This document shows positions 4,515 to 64,000 of a stretch of DNA of 64,000 nt, one piece after another. The notes beneath the pieces were generated by a model. That model ran no database searches. It worked only from the letters and a program-made list of their open reading frames with translations, and was not told the origin of the DNA. The translations under genes were made by a program, and so were the position numbers. The stretch's first letter is position 1. Each line of letters begins with the position of its first letter. The DNA is from an uncultured Bacilli bacterium (lineage in GTDB: Bacteria; Bacillota_I; Bacilli_A; RF39; UBA660): contig CAKOQD010000001.1 in NCBI GenBank assembly GCA_934101185.1, forward strand, positions 187,336 through 251,335, written 5' to 3'.

Positions 4515-4880
4515 TTATTTTAATTCAATTTCAGCGCCAGCTTCTTCTAATCTAGCTTTTAATTCATTAGCTTCTTCAGCAGGAATATTTTCTTTAATAT
4601 TTCCACCAGCATCAGCGATATCTTTAGCTTCTTTTAATCCTAAACCAGTAACTTCTCTAATTATTTTAATGACATTAATTTTTGCTGCACCAGCATTTTT
4701 AAGAACTACAGTTAATGTAGATGGTCCTTCTTCAGCTGCTGCTGCAGGAGCTGCTGCTACTGCAACTGCACTTGGATCAACACCAAATTCTTCTTTCATT
4801 GCATCAACTAATTCCTTTACTTCTAATAATGTCATTTCTTTTAAAGAGCTAATAAATTCTTCTTTTGTAATTTTTGCCAT
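4515..4880 (-). CDS. rplL: 50S ribosomal protein L7/L12
   Basis: The 121-aa product has an Ala-rich hinge ([14 protein letters not shown]) and a conserved C-terminal domain ([11 protein letters not shown]...[11 protein letters not shown]). Confidence 0.97.
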
Positions 4881-4916: not shown

Positions 4917-5408
4917 TTAATTTTCTTTTTGTTCTGTATAAAGATTTAAAGCAATAGATAAATCTTTAACAATTTGAATCATACCACCAGCAAGCATTGT
5001 ATATAATCCTTCACGTGATGGAATCTTAGCAAACTCATCTAGTTTATCTTTATCTGCCACATTACCTTCAACCATACCTGCTTTAAGTACTAAAGCATCA
5101 TTCTTTTTAGAACATTCACTAAGTACTTTAATTGCCGCTATATCATCATTTGAAAAAGCAATAGCAGTAGGCCCTTCCAAGTAACCGTCTAAGTCAATAT
5201 TTAAATCCTTAAGAGCAATCTTTAGTAATGTGTTTTTATAAACTTTGTAATCTGAATCATTTTCTCTAAGCTTAATTCTTAAATCTTTAGTATCATTATC
5301 AGTCATACCACGATAATCAAACAATACAAATGATTTACTATTATTTAACTTATCTTTAATTTCAGATACAACACCTTGTTTCATTTCCAAAACTTTAACA
5401 CTTGGCAT
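4917..5408 (-). CDS. rplJ: 50S ribosomal protein L10
   Basis: I trimmed the ORF to the ATG at 5408, which is preceded by GGAGGTG. It lies directly upstream of rplL and the product is L10-like (MPSVKVLEMKQGVVSEIKDKL...). Confidence 0.93.
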   Translation of the reverse strand: MPSVKVLEMKQGVVSEIKDKLNNSKSFVLFDYRGMTDNDTKDLRIKLRENDSDYKVYKNTLLKIALKDLNIDLDGYLEGPTAIAFSNDDIAAIKVLSECSKKNDALVLKAGMVEGNVADKDKLDEFAKIPSREGLYTMLAGGMIQIVKDLSIALNLYTEQKEN

Positions 5409-5541
5409 AAGACACCTCCTTATTATATTTACGTGCCTAAATAAAAGAGTCTTTATATGCAAAGACTCCAGATACTTTATAAAAGTCCTCGGTAGGATTT
5501 ACTTCAACACCTACTGTCTTTGGCACTTAAAAATCAAATTC
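5409..5541 (-). promoter_or_regulatory. Structured rplJ 5' leader (L10-leader-like autoregulatory RNA with an attenuator hairpin)
   Basis: The minus-strand RNA has a GUGCC...GGCAC closing stem and an inner GUAGG...CCUAC stem. It also has a GAGUCUUUGCAUAUAAAGACUC hairpin (5447-5468) followed by UUUUAUUU. This position and architecture are typical of the Firmicute L10 leader. Confidence 0.55.
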
Positions 5542-18884: not shown

Positions 18885-18924
18885 AAATATCACCTATAAA
18901 CATAATGATACAAACTAAAAAGAT

Positions 18925-19737
18925 TTATTCATTTATTATAAAAATATACCTATTAAATCCATTTAAATCATTCTTTTTAATAACTTTAGCATCAGGAAAA
19001 TAACTAAGAGCCATTTCTTCAATTAAATCATTCTGATCTTCACCCGTCTCAAAACAAATAATATTTTTATCATTAACAATCCTTTTTATATCACTAAAAA
19101 TCCTACGATAAAACAAAAGCCCATCATCCCCACCAAACAAAGCAAGATGAGGCTCATATTTTAAAACATTCTCTGAAACACATAAAGAATCATTCCTAAT
19201 ATATGGAGGATTACTTATAATAACATCAAACTTATCATCAATCGAAGAATACAAATCAGTATGAACAAATCTAACCAAAGACTTCTTATCATTACTTTTA
19301 GCAACCCTAAGAGCCTTACGAGATATATCAGTAGCAAAAACAGTATACTTACAACTAAGCTCAGCCAAAGTAATTGCAATAACACCACTACCAGTACCAA
19401 TATCAAGTATTTTAACATCCGATGAAAAATACTCATCAATAAGATCCTTAACATCACTAACCAAATATTCAGTCTCAACTCTAGGAATCAAAGTATTCTT
19501 ATTGACATCAAACCATCTATTATAAAAATAAGCTTTACCCGAGATATATTGAATAGGAACACCACGAACTAATCTTTTTACAACATATAAATATTTAACA
19601 TAATCACAAAAAGATAACTCCTTATCCAAAGACAAAGAAACATCAATCAAAGATAAAGACAAAACTTGCCCTAAAGCAAGTTTCTTCTTTTCTATATCAA
19701 TTCCATCATGTCTTTTCAAAACATCATTAATCTTCAT
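18925..19737 (-). CDS. prmC: Release factor glutamine N5-methyltransferase
   Basis: The protein has DIGTGSG and NPPY motifs and lies directly downstream of, and overlapping, prfA. Confidence 0.9.
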   Translation of the reverse strand: MKINDVLKRHDGIDIEKKKLALGQVLSLSLIDVSLSLDKELSFCDYVKYLYVVKRLVRGVPIQYISGKAYFYNRWFDVNKNTLIPRVETEYLVSDVKDLIDEYFSSDVKILDIGTGSGVIAITLAELSCKYTVFATDISRKALRVAKSNDKKSLVRFVHTDLYSSIDDKFDVIISNPPYIRNDSLCVSENVLKYEPHLALFGGDDGLLFYRRIFSDIKRIVNDKNIICFETGEDQNDLIEEMALSYFPDAKVIKKNDLNGFNRYIFIINE

Positions 19738-20788
19738 CTTGAGCCAACTTCCTCTTTTGATCCTCATTAATTAAAGCCTCAACAACATCACCAAGGTCCC
19801 CTTCCATAATTCTATCAAGCTTATTAAGAGTAAGACCTATTCTATGATCAGTAACCCTATTTTGAGGATAATTATAAGTCCTAATCTTTTCAGATCTATC
19901 CCCAGTTCCTATTTTACTCCTTCTAGCATTACCTTGTTCTTCCTCTTGCTTTCTAATTGTTTCTTCATAAATCTTAGCCTTTAATATTTGTAAAGCCTTT
20001 TCTTTATTTTGCAATTGACTTCTTTCATTCTGACAAGTAACAACAATACCAGTAGGCAAATGAGTCATCCTAACAGCACTATCAGTAGTATTAACACTTT
20101 GTCCACCAGCACCACCACTTCGATATACATCAACCTTTATATCAGAATCTTTAACCTCTATTTCTAAATCCTCCTGCTCAGGCATAACCACCACAGTAGC
20201 AGTACTAGTATGAACCCTTCCCTGAGACTCAGTAACAGGAATCCTTTGCACTCTATGAGCACCACTCTCATACTTAAGCTTTGAATAAGCACCATCGCCC
20301 TTAATCATAAACTCAATTTGAGAAAAACCTCCATTCGTACCATCTTCTGCATTTAAAACCTCTATTTTATAACCAAGCGAATCAGCATACTTTTGATACA
20401 TACGGAAAAGATCACCCGCAAAAATATTTGCTTCATCTCCACCAGCAGCACCACGTATTTCCATTATAACATTCTTACTGTCATTTTCATCCTTTGGTAA
20501 AAGAAGTATCTCAAGTTTACCTTCAAGTTCTTCCTTTTCTTTATATAAACCTTCAAGTTCTTCTTTTGCCATATCTTTAAGCTCACTATCTTTAAGCAAT
20601 TCTTCATCATCACTAATACCAGTAAGAACATCCTTATATCTACGATAAAAAGTAACAACTTCCTCTAAAGAACTATGTTCCTTAGATAACTTAGTAAGCA
20701 TATTAATATCAGATATAACCTCAGGCTTAACAAGCTCTAAATCAAGTTCCTCATACTTTTTTAATATATTTTCCAATCTATCTATCAT
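19727..20788 (-). CDS. prfA: Peptide chain release factor 1
   Basis: The 353-aa product has a PVT tripeptide (RIPVTESQGR) and GGQ (SGGAGGQSVN). Confidence 0.97.
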   Translation of the reverse strand: MIDRLENILKKYEELDLELVKPEVISDINMLTKLSKEHSSLEEVVTFYRRYKDVLTGISDDEELLKDSELKDMAKEELEGLYKEKEELEGKLEILLLPKDENDSKNVIMEIRGAAGGDEANIFAGDLFRMYQKYADSLGYKIEVLNAEDGTNGGFSQIEFMIKGDGAYSKLKYESGAHRVQRIPVTESQGRVHTSTATVVVMPEQEDLEIEVKDSDIKVDVYRSGGAGGQSVNTTDSAVRMTHLPTGIVVTCQNERSQLQNKEKALQILKAKIYEETIRKQEEEQGNARRSKIGTGDRSEKIRTYNYPQNRVTDHRIGLTLNKLDRIMEGDLGDVVEALINEDQKRKLAQDED

Positions 20789-27237: not shown

Positions 27238-28512
27238 CTAATTACTAGACCTAACCTTCTTAACCACAACATCCCTAAGCATAAATATAGAATAAGTATT
27301 TATAATAGTAAGCAATCCCACAAAAATATCAATAGTTCTCCAAACAATATAAGATGAAACAATGCCTCCTACAAACAAAGACAAAACTGTAACAATCTTA
27401 AGAATATTTATTAACAATTTTTTGTTAGTAAGTCCTTTTAAATTACTAAGAGCATAATAATATACAGTTATAATCGTAGAAAAGGCAAATAAAACTAAAA
27501 TAATAAGCAATAAAACCTCTCCAATATAACCAAAATGATAATTAAAAGCATACTTAGTAAGTTCAATTCCATTCATCGAAGAAAACACTCCATAGTCGCT
27601 AGTGGCAATAATTAAAATCGTAACAAAAGAAACAATAAAACCAATAAAATAAGTAGAAACAATACCAGTATTTCCTTGTTTAATAAAATCAGTATTACTA
27701 CTAGTTCCACTTATCATTGCACTAGTACCAACACCAGCCTCAGTCTGAAAAATACCTTTTTGAATACCAATAAGCATTACATACAAAAAACCACCAGACA
27801 TTGATTTAACATCAAATGCACTATAAAAAATATTAAAAAACAACTCCGGAATAAAAGAAATATTTTTCACAAACACTATCAAACCAATAAATAAATACAT
27901 AAACATCATAATTGGAAAAATCTTATTACAAAGATTAGAAACAGTCTTAATTCCCTTTAAAAAAACAAAACAAGACAATATTGTTATAATAAAAGAAACT
28001 ACTACAATATTTATATTATACATATCTTCAATCAAAGAAACCATAGTATTATTTTGTATCGCAATAAAACCAGTAGAATAAGAAACAATAGCCCAAATAG
28101 CATATAAAAAGGCAAGCTTCTTCTTTTTAAGACCATATTTAATATAATAAAAAGGTCCTCCTTGACACCCATTATTGTCAACTTTTTTATATATAGTTGA
28201 CAAAATGTTCTCCACAAAACAATTAATAGAAGTTAAAAATGTAATAACCCATATCCAAAAAACTGATCCTAATCCCCCATAATAAATAGTAAAAGCAATA
28301 CCCGCTAAAGAACCAACTCCTATTTTCGAAGACAAAGACATAATTAAACTATCCTTTGCGCTAATATCATTATGACTCTTCTCTGTTTTAAGACAAGACA
28401 ACACTTTAAATAATTTGAGCTGAACAAACTTAAGTTTAAAAGTAAAATAAATACTAGATAAAAAAAGAAAAGAAACTGCAACAGCCCAAATAAGTTTATT
28501 AATAAGTTCCAT
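27238..28512 (-). CDS. Alanine/glycine:cation symporter (AGCS family)
   Basis: This is a 424-aa polytopic membrane protein with AGCS-like sequence (GGPFYY, EAGVGT). Confidence 0.75.
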   Translation of the reverse strand: MELINKLIWAVAVSFLFLSSIYFTFKLKFVQLKLFKVLSCLKTEKSHNDISAKDSLIMSLSSKIGVGSLAGIAFTIYYGGLGSVFWIWVITFLTSINCFVENILSTIYKKVDNNGCQGGPFYYIKYGLKKKKLAFLYAIWAIVSYSTGFIAIQNNTMVSLIEDMYNINIVVVSFIITILSCFVFLKGIKTVSNLCNKIFPIMMFMYLFIGLIVFVKNISFIPELFFNIFYSAFDVKSMSGGFLYVMLIGIQKGIFQTEAGVGTSAMISGTSSNTDFIKQGNTGIVSTYFIGFIVSFVTILIIATSDYGVFSSMNGIELTKYAFNYHFGYIGEVLLLIILVLFAFSTIITVYYYALSNLKGLTNKKLLINILKIVTVLSLFVGGIVSSYIVWRTIDIFVGLLTIINTYSIFMLRDVVVKKVRSSN

Positions 28513-51458: not shown

Positions 51459-52988
51459 TTAATCAATTCGTTGAAATAAAACAAACGCCTCATTTAATTT
51501 TGTACCAGACTTATAATACCCAAATTTATCTAAACTATCAAAACTTTTAATATTTGTATTTAACTGATTAAATATTTTTTCACTAGTATCTGGCATATAT
51601 GCTTGAAGTAAAACAGCACCAAATCTAATTGATTCCACTAAATTATATAAAACTGTAGATAGTCTATTCAAACACTTTTCATCTTTAGCAAGAACCCATG
51701 GCATAGTTTCATCGATATATTTGTTACATTTTCTAAAAATATCAAAAATAGCATCTAAAGAATCAGCAACACGTAAATTATTCATTTTGTCATCGACAAT
51801 ATCTCTGCTAGATAAAACTAAATTAATTAAATCATTATCAACCTCTTCAGTTATATTTTTATTTTCAACAATACCATCAAAATATTTATTAATCATTCCA
51901 ATAGTTCTATTAACTAAATTACCGAGTACATTAGCTAAATTAGAATTAATACTATCTACAAGAAGTTCTCTAGTAAAAGTTCCATCTGATGAAAATGGCA
52001 TCTCATGAAGCATATAATATCTAACAGCATCAACTCCAAATTCATTTACTAAATCATCAGCATAAACTATGTTACCTTTACTCTTACTCATTTTATCATT
52101 TCCAAAAAGCATCCAAGGATGACCAAATATTTTCTTAGGAAGATCTAAATCGAGAGCTTTCAATATAATTGGCCAATAAATAGTATGAAACCTTAAAATG
52201 TCCTTGCCAATTACATGTACATCACAAGGCCAATATCTATTAAACATCTCATCTGAATCACCATCTGGATCATATCCAAGAAAAGTAATATAATTGGTTA
52301 AAGCATCAAGCCATACATAAACAACATGATTTTCATCAAATGAGACAGGTATTCCCCATTTAAAAGACGAACGCGAAACACATAAATCTTCAAGACCTGG
52401 TTTAATAAAATTATTTATCATTTCGTTTTTTCTAGATTCAGGTTGTATAAAATGTGGATGACTTTCAATATAATCTTCAAGCCATGAAGCATAATCGCTC
52501 ATTCTAAAGAAATAAGCCTCTTCACTAGTTTCATGCACTTCTCTACCACAATCAGGGCATTTACCATCAACTAACTGAGTTTCAGTCCAAAAAGATTCAC
52601 ATGGTGTACAATAAAGTCCTTTGTACTCACCTTTATAAATATCACCTTGATCATATAACTTTTTAAATATCTTTTGAACTTTTTCAACATGTAAAGGATC
52701 AGTAGTTCTAATAAACTTATCATAACTAGTATTCATAACATCCCAAATGTTTTTAATTTCATCAGCAACACTATCAACATATTCCTTACAAGAAACACCT
52801 GCTTCCATAGCTTTTTGTTCTATTTTTTGACCATGTTCATCTGTACCAGTTTGAAAATAAACATCATATCCGTTAAGCCTCTTATACCTAGCAATAGCAT
52901 CTGTCAAAACAATTTCATATGTATTTCCAATATGCGGTTTAGCAGAAGTATAAGCAATCGCAGTACTAATATAAAATTTTTCTTTCAT
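51459..52988 (-). CDS. metG: Methionine--tRNA ligase
   Basis: It has a HIGN motif (AKPHIGNTYE), KMSKS, and a Cys4 knuckle (CTPCE...CPDCG). The ATG at 52988 lies 6 nt after GGAGGG. Confidence 0.97.
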   Translation of the reverse strand: MKEKFYISTAIAYTSAKPHIGNTYEIVLTDAIARYKRLNGYDVYFQTGTDEHGQKIEQKAMEAGVSCKEYVDSVADEIKNIWDVMNTSYDKFIRTTDPLHVEKVQKIFKKLYDQGDIYKGEYKGLYCTPCESFWTETQLVDGKCPDCGREVHETSEEAYFFRMSDYASWLEDYIESHPHFIQPESRKNEMINNFIKPGLEDLCVSRSSFKWGIPVSFDENHVVYVWLDALTNYITFLGYDPDGDSDEMFNRYWPCDVHVIGKDILRFHTIYWPIILKALDLDLPKKIFGHPWMLFGNDKMSKSKGNIVYADDLVNEFGVDAVRYYMLHEMPFSSDGTFTRELLVDSINSNLANVLGNLVNRTIGMINKYFDGIVENKNITEEVDNDLINLVLSSRDIVDDKMNNLRVADSLDAIFDIFRKCNKYIDETMPWVLAKDEKCLNRLSTVLYNLVESIRFGAVLLQAYMPDTSEKIFNQLNTNIKSFDSLDKFGYYKSGTKLNEAFVLFQRID

Positions 52989-53007
52989 AATCATCCCTCC
53001 AATAAAT

Positions 53008-53205
53008 AAAAAACGAAATATCTCTAAGGACGAAATATTCCGTGGTACCACCTTAATTTTGCAAAATTACAAACTTATTTTTTTAACGCATCCCTGCGGG
53101 CAAAACCTGTTCCGAAAATCATACCAAACAATTTAAAATATTTGTTTTCACCAAACACAAACTCTCTACAATTTCAAAATTGTCCTAACTTTTCTTCATC
53201 ACATT
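53008..53205 (-). promoter_or_regulatory. T-box riboswitch leader (Met specifier AUG) controlling metG
   Basis: On the minus strand, stem I contains AGAGAG and a GGUGAAA distal loop, and the specifier loop reads GGU-AUG-A (AUG at 53122-53120). The T-box sequence GGUGGUACCACG lies at 53052-53041. A terminator (CGGAAUAUUU/AGAUAUUUCG) is followed by U6. Confidence 0.85.
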
Positions 53206-53213
53206 TAAATAAA

Positions 53214-57594: not shown

Positions 57595-58370
57595 AACATC
57601 ACATCCACAATTTTACCATCTTCTAATTCTAATTTATACATTCTTTTAAACAAATCTACATACACTACTTTGCCCTTATTAGAATCATTAGATATCACTT
57701 CACCAACTTTAGGTAAATCTTTTTTATATTCATTATACAATTCGTTTTCATACTCCAAACAACACATTAATCTACCACATACACCATTAATTTTCTGAGG
57801 ATTTAAAGCAAGATTTTGATTTTTAGCCATATTAATAGAAACACTATTTAAATCAGTCAAGAATGAAGAACAACACAATTTTCTACCGCAAGCTCCATAA
57901 CCTCCAACACATTTTGCTTTATCACGAACTCCAATTTGTCTAAGTTCAATTCTAGTTTTATATATATAAGCCAATTTTTTAGCAAGTTCTCTAAAATCAA
58001 CCCTTGCATCTGCTAAAAAATTAAATAAAAGTTGTGAACGATCAAAAGTAAAAGAAGCATCTAATATTTTCATATTCAAATTCAACTCAGCAACAAACTT
58101 ATTAGCATGTTCGATTGCAAGCTCTGAATCTTTAATATTCTTTTCATTCATGTTAATATCATCAGAATCAGCAATTTTTAAAATATTTTTAAGCTCAAAT
58201 GAAATTCGATTTTTGTCAACAGCGATTCTATCAGTACAAATTATCCCAAATTGTTGTCCACGTTCAGTTTCAACTATAACATAGTCATTTTTTTCAGGTT
58301 CATTCCCATTAGGTAAAAAGTAATATATTTTAGTAGAATCATTAAAACGTACACCAAATACTTCAATCAT
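57591..58370 (-). CDS. yaaT: PSP1-domain stage 0 sporulation protein YaaT (RicT)
   Basis: It has PSP1 domain sequence and a Cys cluster (CGRKLCCSSF...CGRLMCCLEYE). It lies downstream of holB. Confidence 0.9.
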   Translation of the reverse strand: MIEVFGVRFNDSTKIYYFLPNGNEPEKNDYVIVETERGQQFGIICTDRIAVDKNRISFELKNILKIADSDDINMNEKNIKDSELAIEHANKFVAELNLNMKILDASFTFDRSQLLFNFLADARVDFRELAKKLAYIYKTRIELRQIGVRDKAKCVGGYGACGRKLCCSSFLTDLNSVSINMAKNQNLALNPQKINGVCGRLMCCLEYENELYNEYKKDLPKVGEVISNDSNKGKVVYVDLFKRMYKLELEDGKIVDVML

Positions 58371-59282
58371 CTAATCATCTCCCAACATCTTAATTGTAAA
58401 ATCATCAATCAACAAATCTTTATTAGTATTAGATTTAGATTTATTAAGAAATGAATTAATTACATCAATCTTCTTTATTATATCACTAATTGTAGTATTT
58501 TTCATAACTTTTGCCTTTTCTTCATCATATCCATCAAGAAAATGTAAATCTCTATCATAATATAAATTAAAAATATCATAATAAAAAGCAAGACCAACTA
58601 GAAAAAAATTATTGAGTTCATTTTTAATGCTATACATATATTCATTAGTAAGTAAAAAAACATCATTTAATTCTAACAAACAATACAATTTAACCATACT
58701 AGAAATCTTATCATTAACAAAATCAGTGTAATTCAAAGTATCATCATAACCGCTCCAAATTAATTTATTAATAAAAGACTCATTATTTATTAATGACAAA
58801 ACCTGGCAACGCGAAACAATAGTATTCAATAAATCGTATCTACTATCAGCTACTAAAATTGCAACTATATCATCATCTGGTTCTTCTAAAAACTTAAGTA
58901 ATGTATTTGACGAAGACACATTAAGTAAATTAGCATTATTGATTATGTAAATTCTTTTATTATTATTTTGAGATTTAAAAGAAAAAATATGTTTTAAAAA
59001 AGCAACATCGTTCTTTTTAATTTCATTAGCATCACTATTAATAATATATAAATCAGAATATATATTTTTATCTATCTCATCAAGTATTACCTTTTGTTGT
59101 ATAGAATCTTTATCAATACAAAGAAAAAACTTAGCAAGTGAAATAGCTAAATCATATCCATAAGAAACACCATTAGTTTCAATTAAATAAGCATGAGAAA
59201 TATGACCATTATTAACAGAATTTATAATATACTTATAAAAAATATTTTGTATTTTTTCATATTTATCTAACATGCCTATCAC
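58371..59282 (-). CDS. holB: DNA polymerase III subunit delta'
   Basis: It is an AAA+-like clamp-loader subunit (SHAYLI...LLKFLEEP...TIVSRCQ). The start could be 59282 or 59273. Confidence 0.85.
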   Translation of the reverse strand: MIGMLDKYEKIQNIFYKYIINSVNNGHISHAYLIETNGVSYGYDLAISLAKFFLCIDKDSIQQKVILDEIDKNIYSDLYIINSDANEIKKNDVAFLKHIFSFKSQNNNKRIYIINNANLLNVSSSNTLLKFLEEPDDDIVAILVADSRYDLLNTIVSRCQVLSLINNESFINKLIWSGYDDTLNYTDFVNDKISSMVKLYCLLELNDVFLLTNEYMYSIKNELNNFFLVGLAFYYDIFNLYYDRDLHFLDGYDEEKAKVMKNTTISDIIKKIDVINSFLNKSKSNTNKDLLIDDFTIKMLGDD

Positions 59283-59446
59283 GTATAATCAATCTTATAG
59301 AAATATTAATTAATTTCTTATTGATTGATCCCTTTCTATTTATATTTTTGATTTATTATACAACTACTGTATAATAAATTTCGCATTGTGAATTTATTTC
59401 TATGTATTTACAGATATTATGGATTGGTATGAGGCAAATCACCTCA

Positions 59447-59641
59447 TCACAAAATTAACAATAAAACTATCAACAAAATCAATCCAAAAATATCAAACAA
59501 ACCCACTATCAAAATTGTAATAATATTAATTGGAACAAAATAAACTGAAGAACCCATTATTAAGTCATATATATAAATTATAAATGGGGCTAAAAGAAGT
59601 TTTCTCCCAATAAAATATAATCTTTTTTTCAAGAACAACAC
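59447..59641 (-). CDS. bofA: Pro-sigmaK processing inhibitor BofA-like small membrane protein
   Basis: It has two TM helices, and YFVPINIITILIVGLFDIFGL resembles B. subtilis BofA HVPINLVTTAISGILGIPG. It occupies the position after recR. The start is uncertain (a TTG codon). Confidence 0.6.
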   Translation of the reverse strand: MLFLKKRLYFIGRKLLLAPFIIYIYDLIMGSSVYFVPINIITILIVGLFDIFGLILLIVLLLIL

Positions 59642-59668
59642 CTCAAAAAAATATATGATTACAATTTA

Positions 59669-60265
59669 TTAAAATACTTCCTTTCTATTATTTAAAGCAG
59701 TTTCTAACGTAAGAACATCAATATATTCCATATCTGCTCCAATAGGAATACCATTAGCTATTCTAGTTACTACAATTTCATCCTTTTCTAATAATCTTTT
59801 TATGTATAAAGCAGTTGTATCAGCTTCTATACCAGTTTTAATAGCAAGAACAACTTCCTTTATATTATTTTCCTTTACCCTTTTTACCAATAAATCAATA
59901 GATAAATCATCTGGACCAATTTCATCAAGTGGAGAAATCAAACCACCAAGAACATGATAATATCCATTATAATTGCCAAGTTTTTCAAATAAAAATACAT
60001 CCTTAGAATTTTCAACAACTAAAATACTATCACTGTTACGTGAATTATCACTACAAATAAAACACAAATCATTTTCTGTTAAAGTACCACAAACCGTACA
60101 AGGTTTTATATCAGTTTTAGCATTACGTAATGCATTACTAAATTCAGTTACTTCTTCAACATCGAAATCAAGTACAGAAAAAGCTAATCTTTCAGCAGTT
60201 TTTTCCCCAATTCCTGGAAACTTTTTAAAATATTCAATTAAATATACTAAACTCTTTGGATACAT
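59669..60265 (-). CDS. recR: Recombination protein RecR
   Basis: It has a HhH motif (LPGIGEKTAERLAF), a Cys4 zinc finger and a Toprim domain. Confidence 0.97.
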   Translation of the reverse strand: MYPKSLVYLIEYFKKFPGIGEKTAERLAFSVLDFDVEEVTEFSNALRNAKTDIKPCTVCGTLTENDLCFICSDNSRNSDSILVVENSKDVFLFEKLGNYNGYYHVLGGLISPLDEIGPDDLSIDLLVKRVKENNIKEVVLAIKTGIEADTTALYIKRLLEKDEIVVTRIANGIPIGADMEYIDVLTLETALNNRKEVF

Positions 60266-60269
60266 ACTA

Positions 60270-60569
60270 TCACATCAATCCTGACATCATATTAGAATAT
60301 TTTCCCATCTTTTCATTAGTAGTTTTATCTACCTTAAAAAATGCATCATTCATAGCTAAAACTATCATATCTTCTAGCATAGAAATGTCATCACTTAAAT
60401 CATTAGCATCAGAAGAAATCTTAACACTTAAAACTTCTTTTTTTCCATTAACTACAACCTTAACTAACGAACTACTTCCCTCAAAAGTAGAGTTATCGAT
60501 TTCATTTTTAATATTTGTAATTTCTTTTTGCATAGCTTGTGCTTGTTTCATTAAAGCTTGCATATTCAT
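60270..60569 (-). CDS. ybaB: Nucleoid-associated protein YbaB/EbfC
   Basis: The 99-aa product starts MNMQALMKQAQAMQKEI and lies in the dnaX-ybaB-recR order. Confidence 0.93.
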   Translation of the reverse strand: MNMQALMKQAQAMQKEITNIKNEIDNSTFEGSSSLVKVVVNGKKEVLSVKISSDANDLSDDISMLEDMIVLAMNDAFFKVDKTTNEKMGKYSNMMSGLM

Positions 60570-60580
60570 AATTATCCCTC

Positions 60581-62206
60581 CTATTTTAATTCAACAATAT
60601 CTTTACCAAATAATGAAGTGGCCAAAACATCACTATCATTATTATTAAAAGAAACATTCTCATTTGAAGAAAGATTAATATCATTATCAACGTTTTCTTC
60701 GGTAATATAACTATAAACAATTCCATTTTGAATATTTTTTATATACTCATTTTTCAGTTTATCCCAATCAGAATCATTAATAAAAACAAGTTTATAGTTA
60801 GTATTCATGACACTATTAAACACTAATTCAATACCAGAAATATTGTTATCAACATTTTTAAGAACAGAATCATATTTAACTGATAAAATCAATTCATGTT
60901 TACCAGCAACTCGTAAATTACTATCAAGTAAATAAGAAATAAACAAAGAATCTTCAGGATTAGAAACAACTTCAGAAAATAAAACCCATTTAATTTTTAA
61001 ATCATTCAAAATACTTTTATCAGCTAAAGCAAAAGCATTATTAATCCTGATATCTTTATTATAACACACTTTATAAGTTTCAACTACATTTTTAGGAACA
61101 TCATCATTCTTACTACTAGAAACAACTTTCTTTTCTAAAGTAGACAAATTATCAACATCTCGAAAATTACAAACATTTGTTTTGCTATTAAATAATTTAT
61201 TGACAATTTTAATAATTCCAACCTCAAAAATAATTTTTTTGTTACTACTTCTTTTCAGTAATATATCTAACTCATTCAGCTCAAGTATTAAACTATAAAT
61301 AGAATCAAAATCACTACTATTATGTAAGATTAAGCAAGACTTAAGATATTCCATAAAACTATCTAATAAAATAACAACATCTTTACCCGAATTTTCCAAT
61401 TCAGTTAAGAGATTCAAAATATTAGAGACATCACCATCAAAAATATAATTTGTTAAAGATTTTAAATATTCCTCATTAACAATACCTTTTAAAGTGTAAT
61501 AATCATCAACAGTAATTTTGTCAGAATAAGAAATCAATTTATCCAACATGCTAATCGAATCTCTTAAACCACCATCACTATATTTTGCAATCAACTTCAA
61601 AACTTCATCATCAATATTAATATTTTCACAATTCACAATAGACTTCAATTTATTAACAATATCATTATTTGAAATACGTTCAAAACTAAAACATTGACAT
61701 CTAGAAATAATAGTTTCTGGAATTTTATAAAATTCTGTAGTTGCTAATATAAAAATAACATGAGTTGGTGGTTCCTCAAGAGTTTTCAACAATGCATTAA
61801 AAGCTCCACTCGATAACATATGCACTTCATCAATAATATAAACTTTATACTTTGAAATACTTGGCATTAAATTAACACTATCTCTAATTTTTCTAATTTC
61901 CTCAACACCATTATTCGAAGCAGCATCAATTTCAATAATATCAGGATTATTTTTGTTATTAAAAGAAACACAACTATCACATTCATTACAAAATGTAGAT
62001 CCATTCAAATTAAAACAATTAATAGTTTTTGCAATAATTTTTGCCAAACTTGTTTTACCAGTTCCCCTCGGACCAGCAAACAAATAAGCATGAGAAACAC
62101 AATCATTAGCAATAGAATTTTTAAGTATCTTTACAATAGAGTCTTGACCAGCAACCTCATCAAAACAAGTTGGTCTATATTTTCTATACAAAGCTAAATA
62201 AGCAAT
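60581..62206 (-). CDS. dnaX: DNA polymerase III subunit gamma/tau
   Basis: It has YRKYRP, GPRGTGKT, a zinc module (C..C..C) and SRC. The ORF-track start is TTG at 62191, but the in-frame upstream codons IIAYLAL and the position of GGGGGTGA suggest an ATT start near 62206. Confidence 0.93.
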   Translation of the reverse strand: MAYLALYRKYRPTCFDEVAGQDSIVKILKNSIANDCVSHAYLFAGPRGTGKTSLAKIIAKTINCFNLNGSTFCNECDSCVSFNNKNNPDIIEIDAASNNGVEEIRKIRDSVNLMPSISKYKVYIIDEVHMLSSGAFNALLKTLEEPPTHVIFILATTEFYKIPETIISRCQCFSFERISNNDIVNKLKSIVNCENINIDDEVLKLIAKYSDGGLRDSISMLDKLISYSDKITVDDYYTLKGIVNEEYLKSLTNYIFDGDVSNILNLLTELENSGKDVVILLDSFMEYLKSCLILHNSSDFDSIYSLILELNELDILLKRSSNKKIIFEVGIIKIVNKLFNSKTNVCNFRDVDNLSTLEKKVVSSSKNDDVPKNVVETYKVCYNKDIRINNAFALADKSILNDLKIKWVLFSEVVSNPEDSLFISYLLDSNLRVAGKHELILSVKYDSVLKNVDNNISGIELVFNSVMNTNYKLVFINDSDWDKLKNEYIKNIQNGIVYSYITEENVDNDINLSSNENVSFNNNDSDVLATSLFGKDIVELK

Positions 62207-62235
62207 AATATCACCCCCAAAAAAGTACTATAAAT

Positions 62236-62264
62236 ATTGTACCAAATTAGATTAATAAAGTCTA
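62236..62264 (-). promoter_or_regulatory. Candidate dnaX promoter (TAGACT-17-TGgTACAAT)
   Basis: On the minus strand an extended -10 TGGTACAAT lies at 62244-62236 and the -35 TAGACT at 62264-62259. Confidence 0.45.
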
Positions 62265-62298
62265 TGATATGACAATTGTATAAAATAACTTTTTTAAA

Positions 62299-62314
62299 TG
62301 TTTCACGTGAAACA
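62299..62314. promoter_or_regulatory. parS: parS site 1 (ParB/Spo0J binding site, perfect)
   Basis: This is exactly TGTTTCACGTGAAACA. The palindrome extends to 62290-62323. Confidence 0.85.
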
Positions 62315-62360
62315 TTTAAAAAAATACTTATTAACAATTTGATATAACATAACTCAAAAT

Positions 62361-62376
62361 TATTTCCCGGGAAATA
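62361..62376. promoter_or_regulatory. Noc-binding site (NBS) 1, perfect consensus
   Basis: This is exactly TATTTCCCGGGAAATA. The palindrome extends to 62357-62380. Its centre lies 62 bp from parS1. Confidence 0.8.
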
Positions 62377-62480
62377 ATTTGCAAGCTAGTTTTTGTATTC
62401 ACAACACATTTTTAAGAACATAATATATTAAAAAACAAAATTCAAACATACAAATTATTACCATTATAAAAAAATATCAA

Positions 62481-62496
62481 TGTTTCACGTGAAACA
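62481..62496. promoter_or_regulatory. parS: parS site 2 (perfect)
   Basis: This is exactly TGTTTCACGTGAAACA. It has no extended palindromic arms. Confidence 0.85.
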
Positions 62497-62613
62497 TAAG
62501 ATTAGATTAAATAAAATCAAAAACAATAAGTAAACCAAAAAAAAATAAAGAATAAATAAATCATTTATTAAAAATAAATAAAACAACATAAACAAGGATC
62601 AATATTTTTTCTA

Positions 62614-62629
62614 TGTTTCACGTGAAACA
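62614..62629. promoter_or_regulatory. parS: parS site 3 (perfect)
   Basis: This is exactly TGTTTCACGTGAAACA. The palindrome extends to 62605-62638. Confidence 0.85.
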
Positions 62630-62674
62630 TAGAAAAAAACATTTATTAACAATTTGATATACATGATTCAAAAT

Positions 62675-62690
62675 TATTTCCCGGGAAATA
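62675..62690. promoter_or_regulatory. Noc-binding site (NBS) 2, perfect consensus
   Basis: This is exactly TATTTCCCGGGAAATA. The palindrome extends to 62671-62694. Its centre lies 61 bp from parS3. Confidence 0.8.
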
Positions 62691-62805
62691 ATTTACAAAC
62701 ATTTTTTTGTATTGCAAATTATTTTTTAGAATATAGAAGTAAAATACGAAATAATTATAACAATTAAGCACTTATTTTTTGGATATTAAATATTTATTGA
62801 GTTAA

Positions 62806-62821
62806 TGTTTCACGTGAAACA
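62806..62821. promoter_or_regulatory. parS: parS site 4 (perfect)
   Basis: This is exactly TGTTTCACGTGAAACA. The palindrome extends to 62794-62833 (40 bp). Confidence 0.85.
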
Positions 62822-62955
62822 TTAACTCAATAATAAATTAAGTAATAAAAATAAAATTAATAACTAAATTTATAATTACATTATTATACAAATATATTTT
62901 GCAATATAAAGCATAAATAGCACAATATTAACAAAAAAATGTTTATATTTCTTTA

Positions 62956-62971
62956 TGTTTCACGTGAAACA
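62956..62971. promoter_or_regulatory. parS: parS site 5 (perfect)
   Basis: This is exactly TGTTTCACGTGAAACA. The palindrome extends to 62950-62977. Confidence 0.85.
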
Positions 62972-63019
62972 TAAAGAGATACTACTGCTTAAATTTAATT
63001 AAATAAAAACAGTTAACAA

Positions 63020-63035
63020 TGTTTCACGTGAAACA
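63020..63035. promoter_or_regulatory. parS: parS site 6 (perfect), abutting the tadA stop codon
   Basis: This is exactly TGTTTCACGTGAAACA. The extended palindrome at 63011-63044 covers the tadA TAA (63041-63039) and is followed on the minus strand by GUUUUUAUUU. Confidence 0.85.
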
Positions 63036-63038
63036 TTG

Positions 63039-63479
63039 TTAACTTCTTATATTGCTAAAAAATTTTGACAATATATTTTTATATTTATCTACAAATTCAT
63101 TATCGTCATATTTTTTGCAATTAATACGATCATAATTACTCTTTAAATTATTTTCATACTTAGAAGAAATCAAATATCTAATATTTCTAATACGAGATTC
63201 AGCAATAGCATTCATACACATTTCACAAGGTTCTAAAGTAACATACATGGTACATTCTTCTAAAATAAATGTTTTTAAATACTTGCAAGCTTTAATAATA
63301 GCTAAAATTTCAGCATGATATATTGAGATATTTTTATTATTTTTTTTATTATATGCTTTAGCAATTACTTTATTTTTAAAAACAATAATACAACCAACTG
63401 GAACATTATTTGTTTTTGATGCTTTTCTTGCTTCTCTTATGGCTAAATCAAAATAATATTTATCGTCATTTAACAACAT
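63039..63479 (-). CDS. tadA: tRNA-specific adenosine deaminase
   Basis: It has the CDA zinc motifs HAE (IYHAEILAI) and PCEMC. I trimmed the ORF to the ATG at 63479, preceded by GGAGG. The upstream part of the tracked ORF is the SRP RNA gene. Confidence 0.9.
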   Translation of the reverse strand: MLLNDDKYYFDLAIREARKASKTNNVPVGCIIVFKNKVIAKAYNKKNNKNISIYHAEILAIIKACKYLKTFILEECTMYVTLEPCEMCMNAIAESRIRNIRYLISSKYENNLKSNYDRINCKKYDDNEFVDKYKNILSKFFSNIRS

Positions 63480-63497
63480 AAAAACCTCCAAAAAAAA

Positions 63498-63568
63498 GTG
63501 CACACACATAGAGGATCTTAAGGCTGCTATCTTCCGATCCTGACCTAATTCAACCATATGCGTTGCAC
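63498..63568 (-). ncRNA. ffs: Signal recognition particle RNA (small, 4.5S-like, about 71 nt)
   Basis: The minus-strand RNA is GUGCAACGCAUAUGGUUGAAUUAGGUCAGGAUCGGAAGAUAGCAGCCUUAAGAUCCUCUAUGUGUGUGCAC. It contains the conserved domain IV core GGUCAGG.CGGAAG..AGCAGCC with a GGAA tetraloop, its ends pair, and it is followed by a U8 run. Confidence 0.8.
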
Positions 63569-63574
63569 AAATAT

Positions 63575-63603
63575 ATATTATAATAAAACAGAAAAATAGT
63601 CAA
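63575..63603 (-). promoter_or_regulatory. SRP RNA/tadA promoter (TTGACT-17-TAATAT)
   Basis: On the minus strand, TTGACT lies at 63603-63598, followed by a 17-nt spacer and TAATAT at 63580-63575. The G at 63568 lies 7 nt downstream. Confidence 0.55.
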
Positions 63604-63607
63604 TCAA

Positions 63608-63623
63608 TGTTTCACGTGAAACA
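63608..63623. promoter_or_regulatory. parS: parS site 7 (perfect), 4 nt upstream of the SRP RNA -35 box
   Basis: This is exactly TGTTTCACGTGAAACA. The palindrome extends to 63604-63627. Confidence 0.85.
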
Positions 63624-63789
63624 TTGAAAAAATTAGTTATTAACAATTTTAATGTTTTAAAATAAATAACATCCTAAATACTGAAATAAAATAATACAAA
63701 AAAAATATTAAAATTTTAAATCAATTAACATTCATTCTAAACAATTGATACTAACAAAACCTCATTATTATAATATAAACCTTATACAT

Positions 63790-63805
63790 AGTTTCACGTG
63801 AAACA
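63790..63805. promoter_or_regulatory. parS: parS site 8 (one mismatch)
   Basis: The sequence is AGTTTCACGTGAAACA, with only position 1 deviating. Confidence 0.75.
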
Positions 63806-63883
63806 TTAAAAACAACACTTATTAACAATTTGCAAAAAATATACAAAAAATAAATAACAAACATTTGTTTATTTTTTTTATAT

Positions 63884-63905
63884 AAAAAAAAGATGCCTAA
63901 GCATC
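63884..63905 (-). terminator. Short terminator hairpin at the end of the upstream partial gene
   Basis: On the minus strand the hairpin GAUGC-UUAG-GCAUC is followed by U8. The stop codon lies in the loop. Confidence 0.4.
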
Positions 63906-64000
63906 ATTTTCATTAGATTCATTATTCTCCAAATCTTCTTCAACTTTTTCTGTTACAGTAACTGATGTAACAAATTGACCATCTTTAAGACTCATTAATC
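63897..64000 (-). CDS. 3' end of an unidentified gene (continues off the window)
   Basis: I translated this by hand as ...LMSLKDGQFVTSVTVTEKVEEDLENNESNENDA*. It is too short to identify. Confidence 0.3.
   Translation of the reverse strand, partial: LMSLKDGQFVTSVTVTEKVEEDLENNESNENDA

Follow-up and report, generated by a model that had tools for sequence, protein, structure and literature searches.

An origin-proximal array of alternating parS and Noc-binding sites as a probable composite centromere in an uncultured gut Bacilli lineage

ParB with its parS sites and Noc with its Noc-binding sites (NBS) are textbook paralogous systems based on a cytidine triphosphate (CTP) switch, and they are thought to differ in place and purpose. 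Each protein starts from its own sites, binds CTP, and then slides along the DNA as a closed clamp (PMC7053999, PMC8429893). Listeria innocua and Streptomyces coelicolor carry 20–23 parS sites (PMC7333895), and Corynebacterium glutamicum carries ten within 35 kb, nine of which are intergenic (PMC7083940). The NBS of Staphylococcus aureus occupy 41 loci, all but one within approximately ±700 kb of the origin (PMC5540599). On the F plasmid, sopC consists of 12 repeats of 43 bp, each with one 16-bp SopB site (PMC3597684). Here, we describe a locus in a stretch of 64 000 nucleotides (contig CAKOQD010000001.1, positions 187 336–251 335; hereafter, the window) from an uncultured Bacilli bacterium, in which the non-coding DNA between gyrA, the genes for a small signal recognition particle (SRP) RNA and a TadA-like deaminase, and dnaX contains eight parS sites, two NBS and four DnaA-box-like motifs. 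Judging from sequence, we interpret this DNA as a composite chromosomal centromere of an uncultured gut Bacilli lineage, with a probability of roughly 0.72.

We searched the window for the 16-mer TGTTTCACGTGAAACA with up to two mismatches and obtained seven perfect copies and one copy with a single mismatch (AGTTTCACGTGAAACA), exactly at the eight positions listed by a first-pass annotation of the letters, and no further match. Chance matches averaged 0.01 per dinucleotide shuffle, and none of 100 shuffles reached eight. The identification of the 16-mer as the parS site of ParB/Spo0J also held, as it fits the 16-bp palindromic consensus TGTTNCACGTGAAACA. We mapped the boundaries of dnaX, the tadA-like gene, the SRP RNA gene and gyrA, and all eight sites lay in non-coding DNA, as had been claimed. 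Six occupy the 847-bp gap between dnaX and tadA, again in agreement with the annotation, namely parS1 (62299–62314), parS2 (62481–62496), parS3 (62614–62629), parS4 (62806–62821), parS5 (62956–62971) and parS6 (63020–63035). The other two lie between the SRP RNA gene and gyrA: parS7 (63608–63623), 5 bp from a –35-like hexamer that lies upstream of the SRP RNA gene, and parS8 (63790–63805), which carries the mismatch. The identical eight sites were present in ten independent metagenome assemblies of the window species.

The array had been supposed to lie near the replication origin, and this was borne out by contig L007. Its sequence matches window positions 58001–64000 with 100% identity over the shared 6 kb and runs on to dnaA and rnpA. 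The gene order of this contig is rnpA–intergenic region–dnaA–dnaN–comK-like–recF–gyrB–gyrA–(two parS)–SRP RNA–tadA–(six parS)–dnaX–ybaB–recR, and the array extends from 9.06 kb (near end) to 10.6 kb (far end) from the dnaA start codon. We also considered whether the 16-mer is a dispersed repeat, and over the range covered it is not. In approximately 92 kb around oriC, composed of the window and same-species contigs, no copy was found outside the array, and the 21 kb left of dnaN on same-species contigs contained neither parS nor NBS.

Within the array, we found two perfect NBS (TATTTCCCGGGAAATA), NBS1 at 62361–62376 and NBS2 at 62675–62690, which were the sole matches in the window even with up to three mismatches allowed. 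Each forms the core of a 24-bp palindrome (62357–62380 and 62671–62694, respectively). The duplex with which Noc was crystallized is GGATATTTCCCGGGAAATATCC (PMC7383237), and the NBS sequence of the window equals the NBS in that crystal. All NBS in the 92 kb around oriC were located in the array.

The region was compared among relatives by a scan anchored on DnaA with one genome per species, which yielded 80 loci, 43 of which reached at least 300 bp past gyrA. We scored parS at up to one mismatch inside the gaps from gyrA to dnaX. The gyrA–tadA–dnaX gaps of these 43 species loci contained parS in 41 cases, NBS in 41 and both in 40, and more than 40 related species keep the array at this position. 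The gaps held 3.19 parS and 2.42 NBS per kb, compared with 0.0017 and 0.017 per kb, respectively, in 1.18 Mb outside them. One locus scored as lacking parS (L020) contained five copies of a known variant, TGTTCCACGTGGAACA, at positions 18931–19868, and the parS variants found in the clade are mostly located at a degenerate position of the consensus. In L022, positions 18886–19261 form an array of the variant TGTTTCACGTGAAACT with a 36-bp period. Such array-wide variants in L020 and L022 look like concerted evolution of the sites within an array.

Strict alternation of parS and NBS over at least five consecutive sites was observed in 15 species. Tandem arrays with one parS and one NBS per unit were found in L079 (125 bp, 10.7 copies) and L043 (76 bp, 6.3 copies), and these two unit sequences are unrelated apart from the sites. 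We rejected a clean tandem repeat for the window array, where Tandem Repeats Finder gave trivial A/T-rich repeats only; the array consists of decayed units, which repeat search and alignment recovered. Between the window and its sister species L012, the flanking genes are approximately 94% identical and the order of sites is different; array architecture turns over quickly while the 16-mers stay perfect. The distance between neighbouring parS and NBS in the arrays of L012–L215 had a median of 57 bp. A weak 10.5-bp signal in the parS–NBS spacing (R = 0.28, mean phase about half a turn) came from a spacing-selected sample with shared ancestry, and we did not rely on helical phasing. Some relatives have an isolated perfect NBS approximately 3.9 kb left of dnaA (at 6114 in L028 and L029, 6150 in L031, 6154 in L058 and 5895 in L044), at about the position of mnmE/trmE in L012; therefore, NBS are not array-confined in every species.

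A scan of metagenomes for parS followed by NBS within 15–45 nt gave at least 120 loci. Among the matches listed, 119 of 120 had gyrA, tadA or dnaX beside the pair, and all 120 had a G+C content of 21–33%. The pattern had no match in viral contigs, and the array had no similarity to plasmid records, for which reason a phage or plasmid origin was rejected. Because both kinds of site were found together in 40 of 43 species and beside the same genes in nearly all listed metagenome loci, with no viral or plasmid match, we regard the composite array as a conserved chromosomal hallmark of the lineage.

The ParB homologue that a parS array presupposes is encoded in the species, together with Soj. With B. 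subtilis Spo0J and Soj as tblastn queries, we found noc, soj and spo0J together in 43 related loci, 8–10 kb from dnaA on the side opposite the array, and noc in ten more that end before spo0J. On the same-species contigs L092–L095, the genes rsmG–noc–soj–spo0J are located approximately 7.5–10.6 kb on the far side of dnaA from the array, and encode a ParB paralogue of 427 amino acids, Soj (259 amino acids, approximately 60% identical to B. subtilis Soj) and Spo0J (298 amino acids); the spo0J gene contains no parS. The positions that separate parS from NBS specificity are residues 173, 179, 184 and 201, which read RTAG in ParB and QKKR in Noc (PMC7383237). Spo0J of the species has R173 and G201, the GERRYRA and ENLQR boxes, and the ParA-activating peptide RALGIGLEELF; an N-terminal peptide of this type (RRALGRGLEELF) was present in 28 of 29 Spo0J orthologues. 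Loading of ParB at the array is predicted with high probability.

The 427-residue paralogue is the positional orthologue of noc, since the order rsmG–noc–soj–spo0J is that of B. subtilis. Its best match among solved structures was Geobacillus Noc (7NFU, 7e-65), and that to B. subtilis Spo0J was 1e-50. The recognition residues are Q-K-N-R in the window species (Q173, K179 and R201) and Q-K-x-R in 51 of 52 orthologues, and the ParB-box/CTP motifs GERRYRA and ENLQR are intact. We consider it probable that the Noc-like protein uses the NBS of the array.

The first-pass annotation had read the locus as a specialised platform for ParB loading. The parS sites, their origin-proximal location, the encoded Spo0J and Soj and the conservation among relatives support such loading; the idea of a pure parS array did not stand, in that two NBS and four DnaA-box-like 9-mers (TTATTAACA, described below) are interleaved. 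These additional motifs might nevertheless be mere passengers of duplicated units and have no binding partner, so that only ParB would be loaded. That parS outnumber NBS by 8 to 2 in the window is consistent with this possibility, as are a few relatives in which many parS are accompanied by one NBS (L022) or none (L051). However, the NBS 16-mers are perfect in units whose flanks share just 61–79% identity, NBS accompany parS in nearly all species with 1:1 alternation in many independent unit types, and the cognate Q-K-x-R-type paralogue is conserved at all 52 loci in which its gene was observed. We therefore judge a pure ParB platform to be unlikely.

All Noc homologues examined are reported to share an N-terminal amphipathic helix, and Noc without its first 10 residues (NocNΔ10) loses its peripheral, membrane-associated localisation (PMC4331003, PMC8429893). 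This membrane helix (residues 1–10) is absent from the Noc-like protein, which starts with MNLEKEVF and has approximately 16 residues before PNRFQPR, compared with 37 in Geobacillus Noc. An N-terminal extension of the open reading frame, hinted at by L012 and L022, was rejected because it is not conserved as protein and is blocked in most species by stop codons, which lie 1–3 codons upstream of the start. For this subfamily, the best 150 representatives of clusters formed at 50% identity (median length, 470 amino acids) likewise all start approximately 16 residues before the motif, and Q-K-x-R is found in 142. The helix-less architecture is shared by at least 150 protein clusters at this identity. 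The protein (L092 10001–11284, with orthologues in L012–L091) has a disordered linker of approximately 150–250 amino acids rich in Q, E, N and P, in which a short motif, NIFDMLRQ or ADLDSLLN, recurs in 39 of 49 clade members. By binding a partner or the membrane, this motif might take the place of the missing helix.

These features bear on the possibility of classical nucleoid occlusion at the origin, in which NBS-bound Noc would tether the centromere to the membrane and block Z-ring assembly over unsegregated origins. The NBS consensus is the same as in B. subtilis and S. aureus, the gene is in the noc position, and Spo0J acts jointly with Noc to keep Z rings from forming too early in B. subtilis (PMC6852036), all of which would suit that role. 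However, the helix that defines Noc (PMC4331003) is missing from the protein of this species and from the best 150 cluster representatives, and we find this explanation improbable.

The array contains a third type of motif. The 9-mer TTATTAACA, embedded in an invariant 13-mer (TTATTAACAATTT), is located exactly 13 nt after parS1, parS3, parS7 and parS8 in constant orientation (62328–62340, 62643–62655, 63637–63649 and 63819–63831, respectively; all on the plus strand). When four long array units were aligned (mean column identity, 72%), only parS, an A-run and this 13-mer were invariant, and in L012 an offset of 13–14 nt from parS to the box is kept at five of eight parS. A lone exact copy of the 13-mer outside the array is present at window positions 27408–27420. 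The two oriC gaps together span 624 bp and hold seven copies of the 9-mer, of which four lie in the 473-bp rnpA–dnaA gap and three in the 151-bp dnaA–dnaN gap; this density is approximately 11 per kb, versus 0.18 per kb in the window. It is the sole TTATNNACA-type word in these gaps in the window organism (oriC gaps flanking dnaA, L007 340–616 and 1988–2138). Because the 9-mer is enriched in oriC gaps, and the classical TTATCCACA or TTATCAACA occupies corresponding places in more distant relatives, TTATTAACA is most likely the DnaA box of the window's genus. The difference points to a DnaA box that has shifted in a lineage-specific way, which might be mirrored in domain IV of DnaA.

B. subtilis has DnaA-box clusters near oriC, and in Caulobacter the centromere is bound by DnaA. 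The locus might accordingly be mainly a site of DnaA titration or initiation control, with parS and NBS secondary, and four oriC-type 9-mers that are invariant within diverged units and fixed in their offset from parS would be expected in that case. Nevertheless, the boxes are limited to the window's genus, and distant relatives with large parS/NBS arrays have no such DnaA boxes in them; we regard this explanation as very unlikely.

Five of the eight parS are located within perfect palindromes that unrelated flanks lengthen by 6–12 bp, for which the chance of at least 6 bp is approximately 0.005 per site. The palindrome is extended on each side by 9 bp at parS1 (62290–62323) and parS3 (62605–62638), by 12 bp at parS4 (62794–62833) and by 6 bp at parS5 (62950–62977), and parS6 lies inside a 34-bp palindrome (63011–63044). 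The same tendency is sporadic in relatives. The parS6 hairpin has a folding energy of –19 kcal/mol (z = –6.2). Because its palindrome covers the stop codon of tadA and precedes, on the minus strand, a U-rich tail, GTTTTTATTT, it is likely the terminator of the SRP RNA–tadA transcript. A second role as terminators is probable for some extended parS palindromes, and candidate causes of the remaining extensions are selection for a terminator or insulator, or palindrome growth via template switching.

Such folding might mean that the palindromes are structural or neutral, whether similar to repetitive extragenic palindromes, terminators or tandem repeats generated by slippage, and have no protein partner. 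The z-scores of the extended palindromes (–5.5 to –9.4), the six terminator-like hairpins found versus 0.3 expected and the rapid change of arrays between species point in this direction. Against it, the cores exactly match two experimentally defined protein-binding sites, the sites are restricted to one locus (parS density outside the gaps, 0.0017 per kb in 1.18 Mb), their variants are located at the known degenerate position of parS, and viral and plasmid collections gave no match. This explanation appears extremely unlikely.

A composite centromere remains our preferred interpretation, and it can be outlined as follows. Because established biochemistry describes both ParB and Noc as CTP-binding proteins that start from their sites and slide as closed clamps, the array would be a high-flux loading zone for both proteins; we infer their binding and clamp behaviour here from these precedents. 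The eight parS would be nucleation points for Spo0J/ParB dimers, which would close into CTP clamps there and slide outward to form a partition complex 9–11 kb from oriC. This complex would activate Soj/ParA via the N-terminal peptide of ParB, drive segregation and presumably load SMC. The Noc-like protein would load at the two NBS within the same 1.5 kb, which would place two different CTP-clamp proteins on one origin-proximal locus, and the close alternation of parS and NBS suggests mutual confinement or a mixed complex.

Because the N-terminal helix is absent, the Noc-like protein cannot take the known membrane-tethering route. It would most likely be a second organiser of the centromere or origin domain, or a cell-cycle coupler, acting through the long linker and its motif. 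In the window's genus, the four oriC-type DnaA boxes, each with the same 13-nt distance to a parS, would add a DnaA-binding component, and their presence in the array suggests coupling to initiation control. As a tentative generalization, to which we give less than even odds, the lineage might have a two-protein centromere, in which ParB and a helix-less Noc paralogue are loaded from alternating parS/NBS arrays, with DnaA boxes added in the genus.

Several observations weigh against this interpretation. The NBS density of B. subtilis would give just 1–2 NBS in the 92 kb examined, and NBS or parS may also be located far from the origin, beyond that range. The noc, soj and spo0J genes were observed on same-species contigs with 96.3% nucleotide identity to L007 (3.1 kb, rnpA–dnaN), not in the strain of the window. 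Position 184 of the Noc-like protein is N instead of the K of the Noc residues QKKR, and K is found in none of the 52 orthologues. The protein scored 297.5 bits (range, 297.5–306.8 bits) with the NCBIfam Noc model (TIGR04285), just below the cut-off of 315, and its Spo0J paralogue scored 241–246 bits. Finally, the 9-mer is identified as a DnaA box solely by its oriC enrichment, and the boxes are confined to the window's genus.

The flanking genes are all encoded on the minus strand. They comprise dnaX (60581–62191; DNA polymerase III gamma/tau), the tadA-like gene for a cytidine/adenosine deaminase of 146 amino acids (63039–63479; in the conserved tadA position, with a score below the NCBIfam TadA cut-off), the small SRP RNA gene (63482–63579; Rfam RF00169, 57.9 bits) and the 3΄ end of gyrA (63897–64000), which extends past the window, with dnaA approximately 9 kb further right. 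The window has 28% G+C, the standard genetic code and a GC skew that is negative throughout. Its DnaX and TadA have exact matches in human-gut metagenome contigs, and species representatives with the same DnaA are labelled as uncultured Bacilli, Tenericutes or 'Mycoplasma sp.' gut metagenome-assembled genomes (MAGs). In this clade, a comK-family gene (PF06338) is located between dnaN and recF (L007 3402–3857), an unusual occupant of the conserved dnaA–dnaN–recF–gyrB block. Two ordinary Rfam leaders were also found in the window: a T-box leader (53023–53208) upstream of an open reading frame (51459–53051) that corresponds to a tRNA-synthetase-family gene in related loci, and an L10 leader (5432–5541) upstream of two open reading frames (4917–5462 and 4515–4880; presumably rplJ and rplL).

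Sites that alternate every 30–70 bp at a conserved locus imply deliberate co-loading of two clamp families. The locus offers a natural system for how two sliding clamps share DNA, whether as mutual roadblocks, in mixed condensates or through a division of labour, and it bears on the reason for parS clustering and on the evolution of Noc from ParB. It also raises the role of a Noc-like protein that lacks a membrane anchor, and the parS-adjacent DnaA boxes would add a physical link of segregation with initiation control. If the lineage does have such a two-protein centromere, NBS and Noc-type proteins can serve in a centromere independently of membrane tethering. The lineage may then preserve, or have reverted to, an intermediate in the derivation of Noc from ParB, with a new DNA specificity in a protein that is still centromeric, which would precede NBS dispersal and the origin of membrane binding. 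In practice, the array shows where the origin region lies when MAGs of this gut lineage are fragmented, and DNA-labelling tools could draw on it as a compact, orthogonal pair of loading sites.

In the open-access literature subset, we found no description of an interleaved parS/NBS array, of a helix-less Noc-type protein with such an array or of parS-phased DnaA boxes. The interleaved layout, conserved in a large uncultured group of gut Bacilli, seems not to have been reported before. The first-pass annotation had suggested that a tight parS array of this kind is undescribed for Bacillota chromosomes. Clustering as such is not new, because numerous or clustered origin-proximal parS were already known in Bacillota and elsewhere (PMC7333895, PMC7083940); the new features are the density and the mixed composition.

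In comparison with chromosomal ParABS systems, the locus has the identical 16-bp parS consensus, an origin-proximal location and a canonical soj–spo0J pair, and it resembles that of C. glutamicum in that most parS are intergenic and lie to one side of oriC (PMC7083940). It differs in density, with eight parS in 1.5 kb (approximately 5 per kb) and up to 10–11 in 1.3 kb in relatives, in the interleaving of parS with sites for a second ParB-family protein, and in the absence of parS from spo0J and from the rest of the 92 kb. The Noc–NBS system of Bacillales shares the identical 16-bp NBS, the rsmG–noc–soj–spo0J position, residues Q173, K179 and R201 and the ParB-box/CTP motifs. In that system, however, NBS are scattered over the origin-proximal chromosome and absent near ter, whereas those of this locus cluster within the parS array, and the protein of this lineage has no N-terminal membrane helix, has a disordered linker of approximately 200 amino acids and scores below the NCBIfam Noc cut-off.

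The arrays of relatives resemble sopC of the F plasmid in being head-to-tail repeats with 16-bp palindromic ParB-family sites in each unit. In contrast to sopC, the array described here is chromosomal, the units of relatives carry two sites for two proteins, and the window array has diverged. Finally, the DnaA-box clusters of B. subtilis and the Caulobacter centromere are similar in that oriC-type 9-mers are located outside oriC beside centromere sites, whereas the boxes of this locus are distinguished by their fixed 13-nt offset from parS and by the AT-rich variant sequence TTATTAACA.

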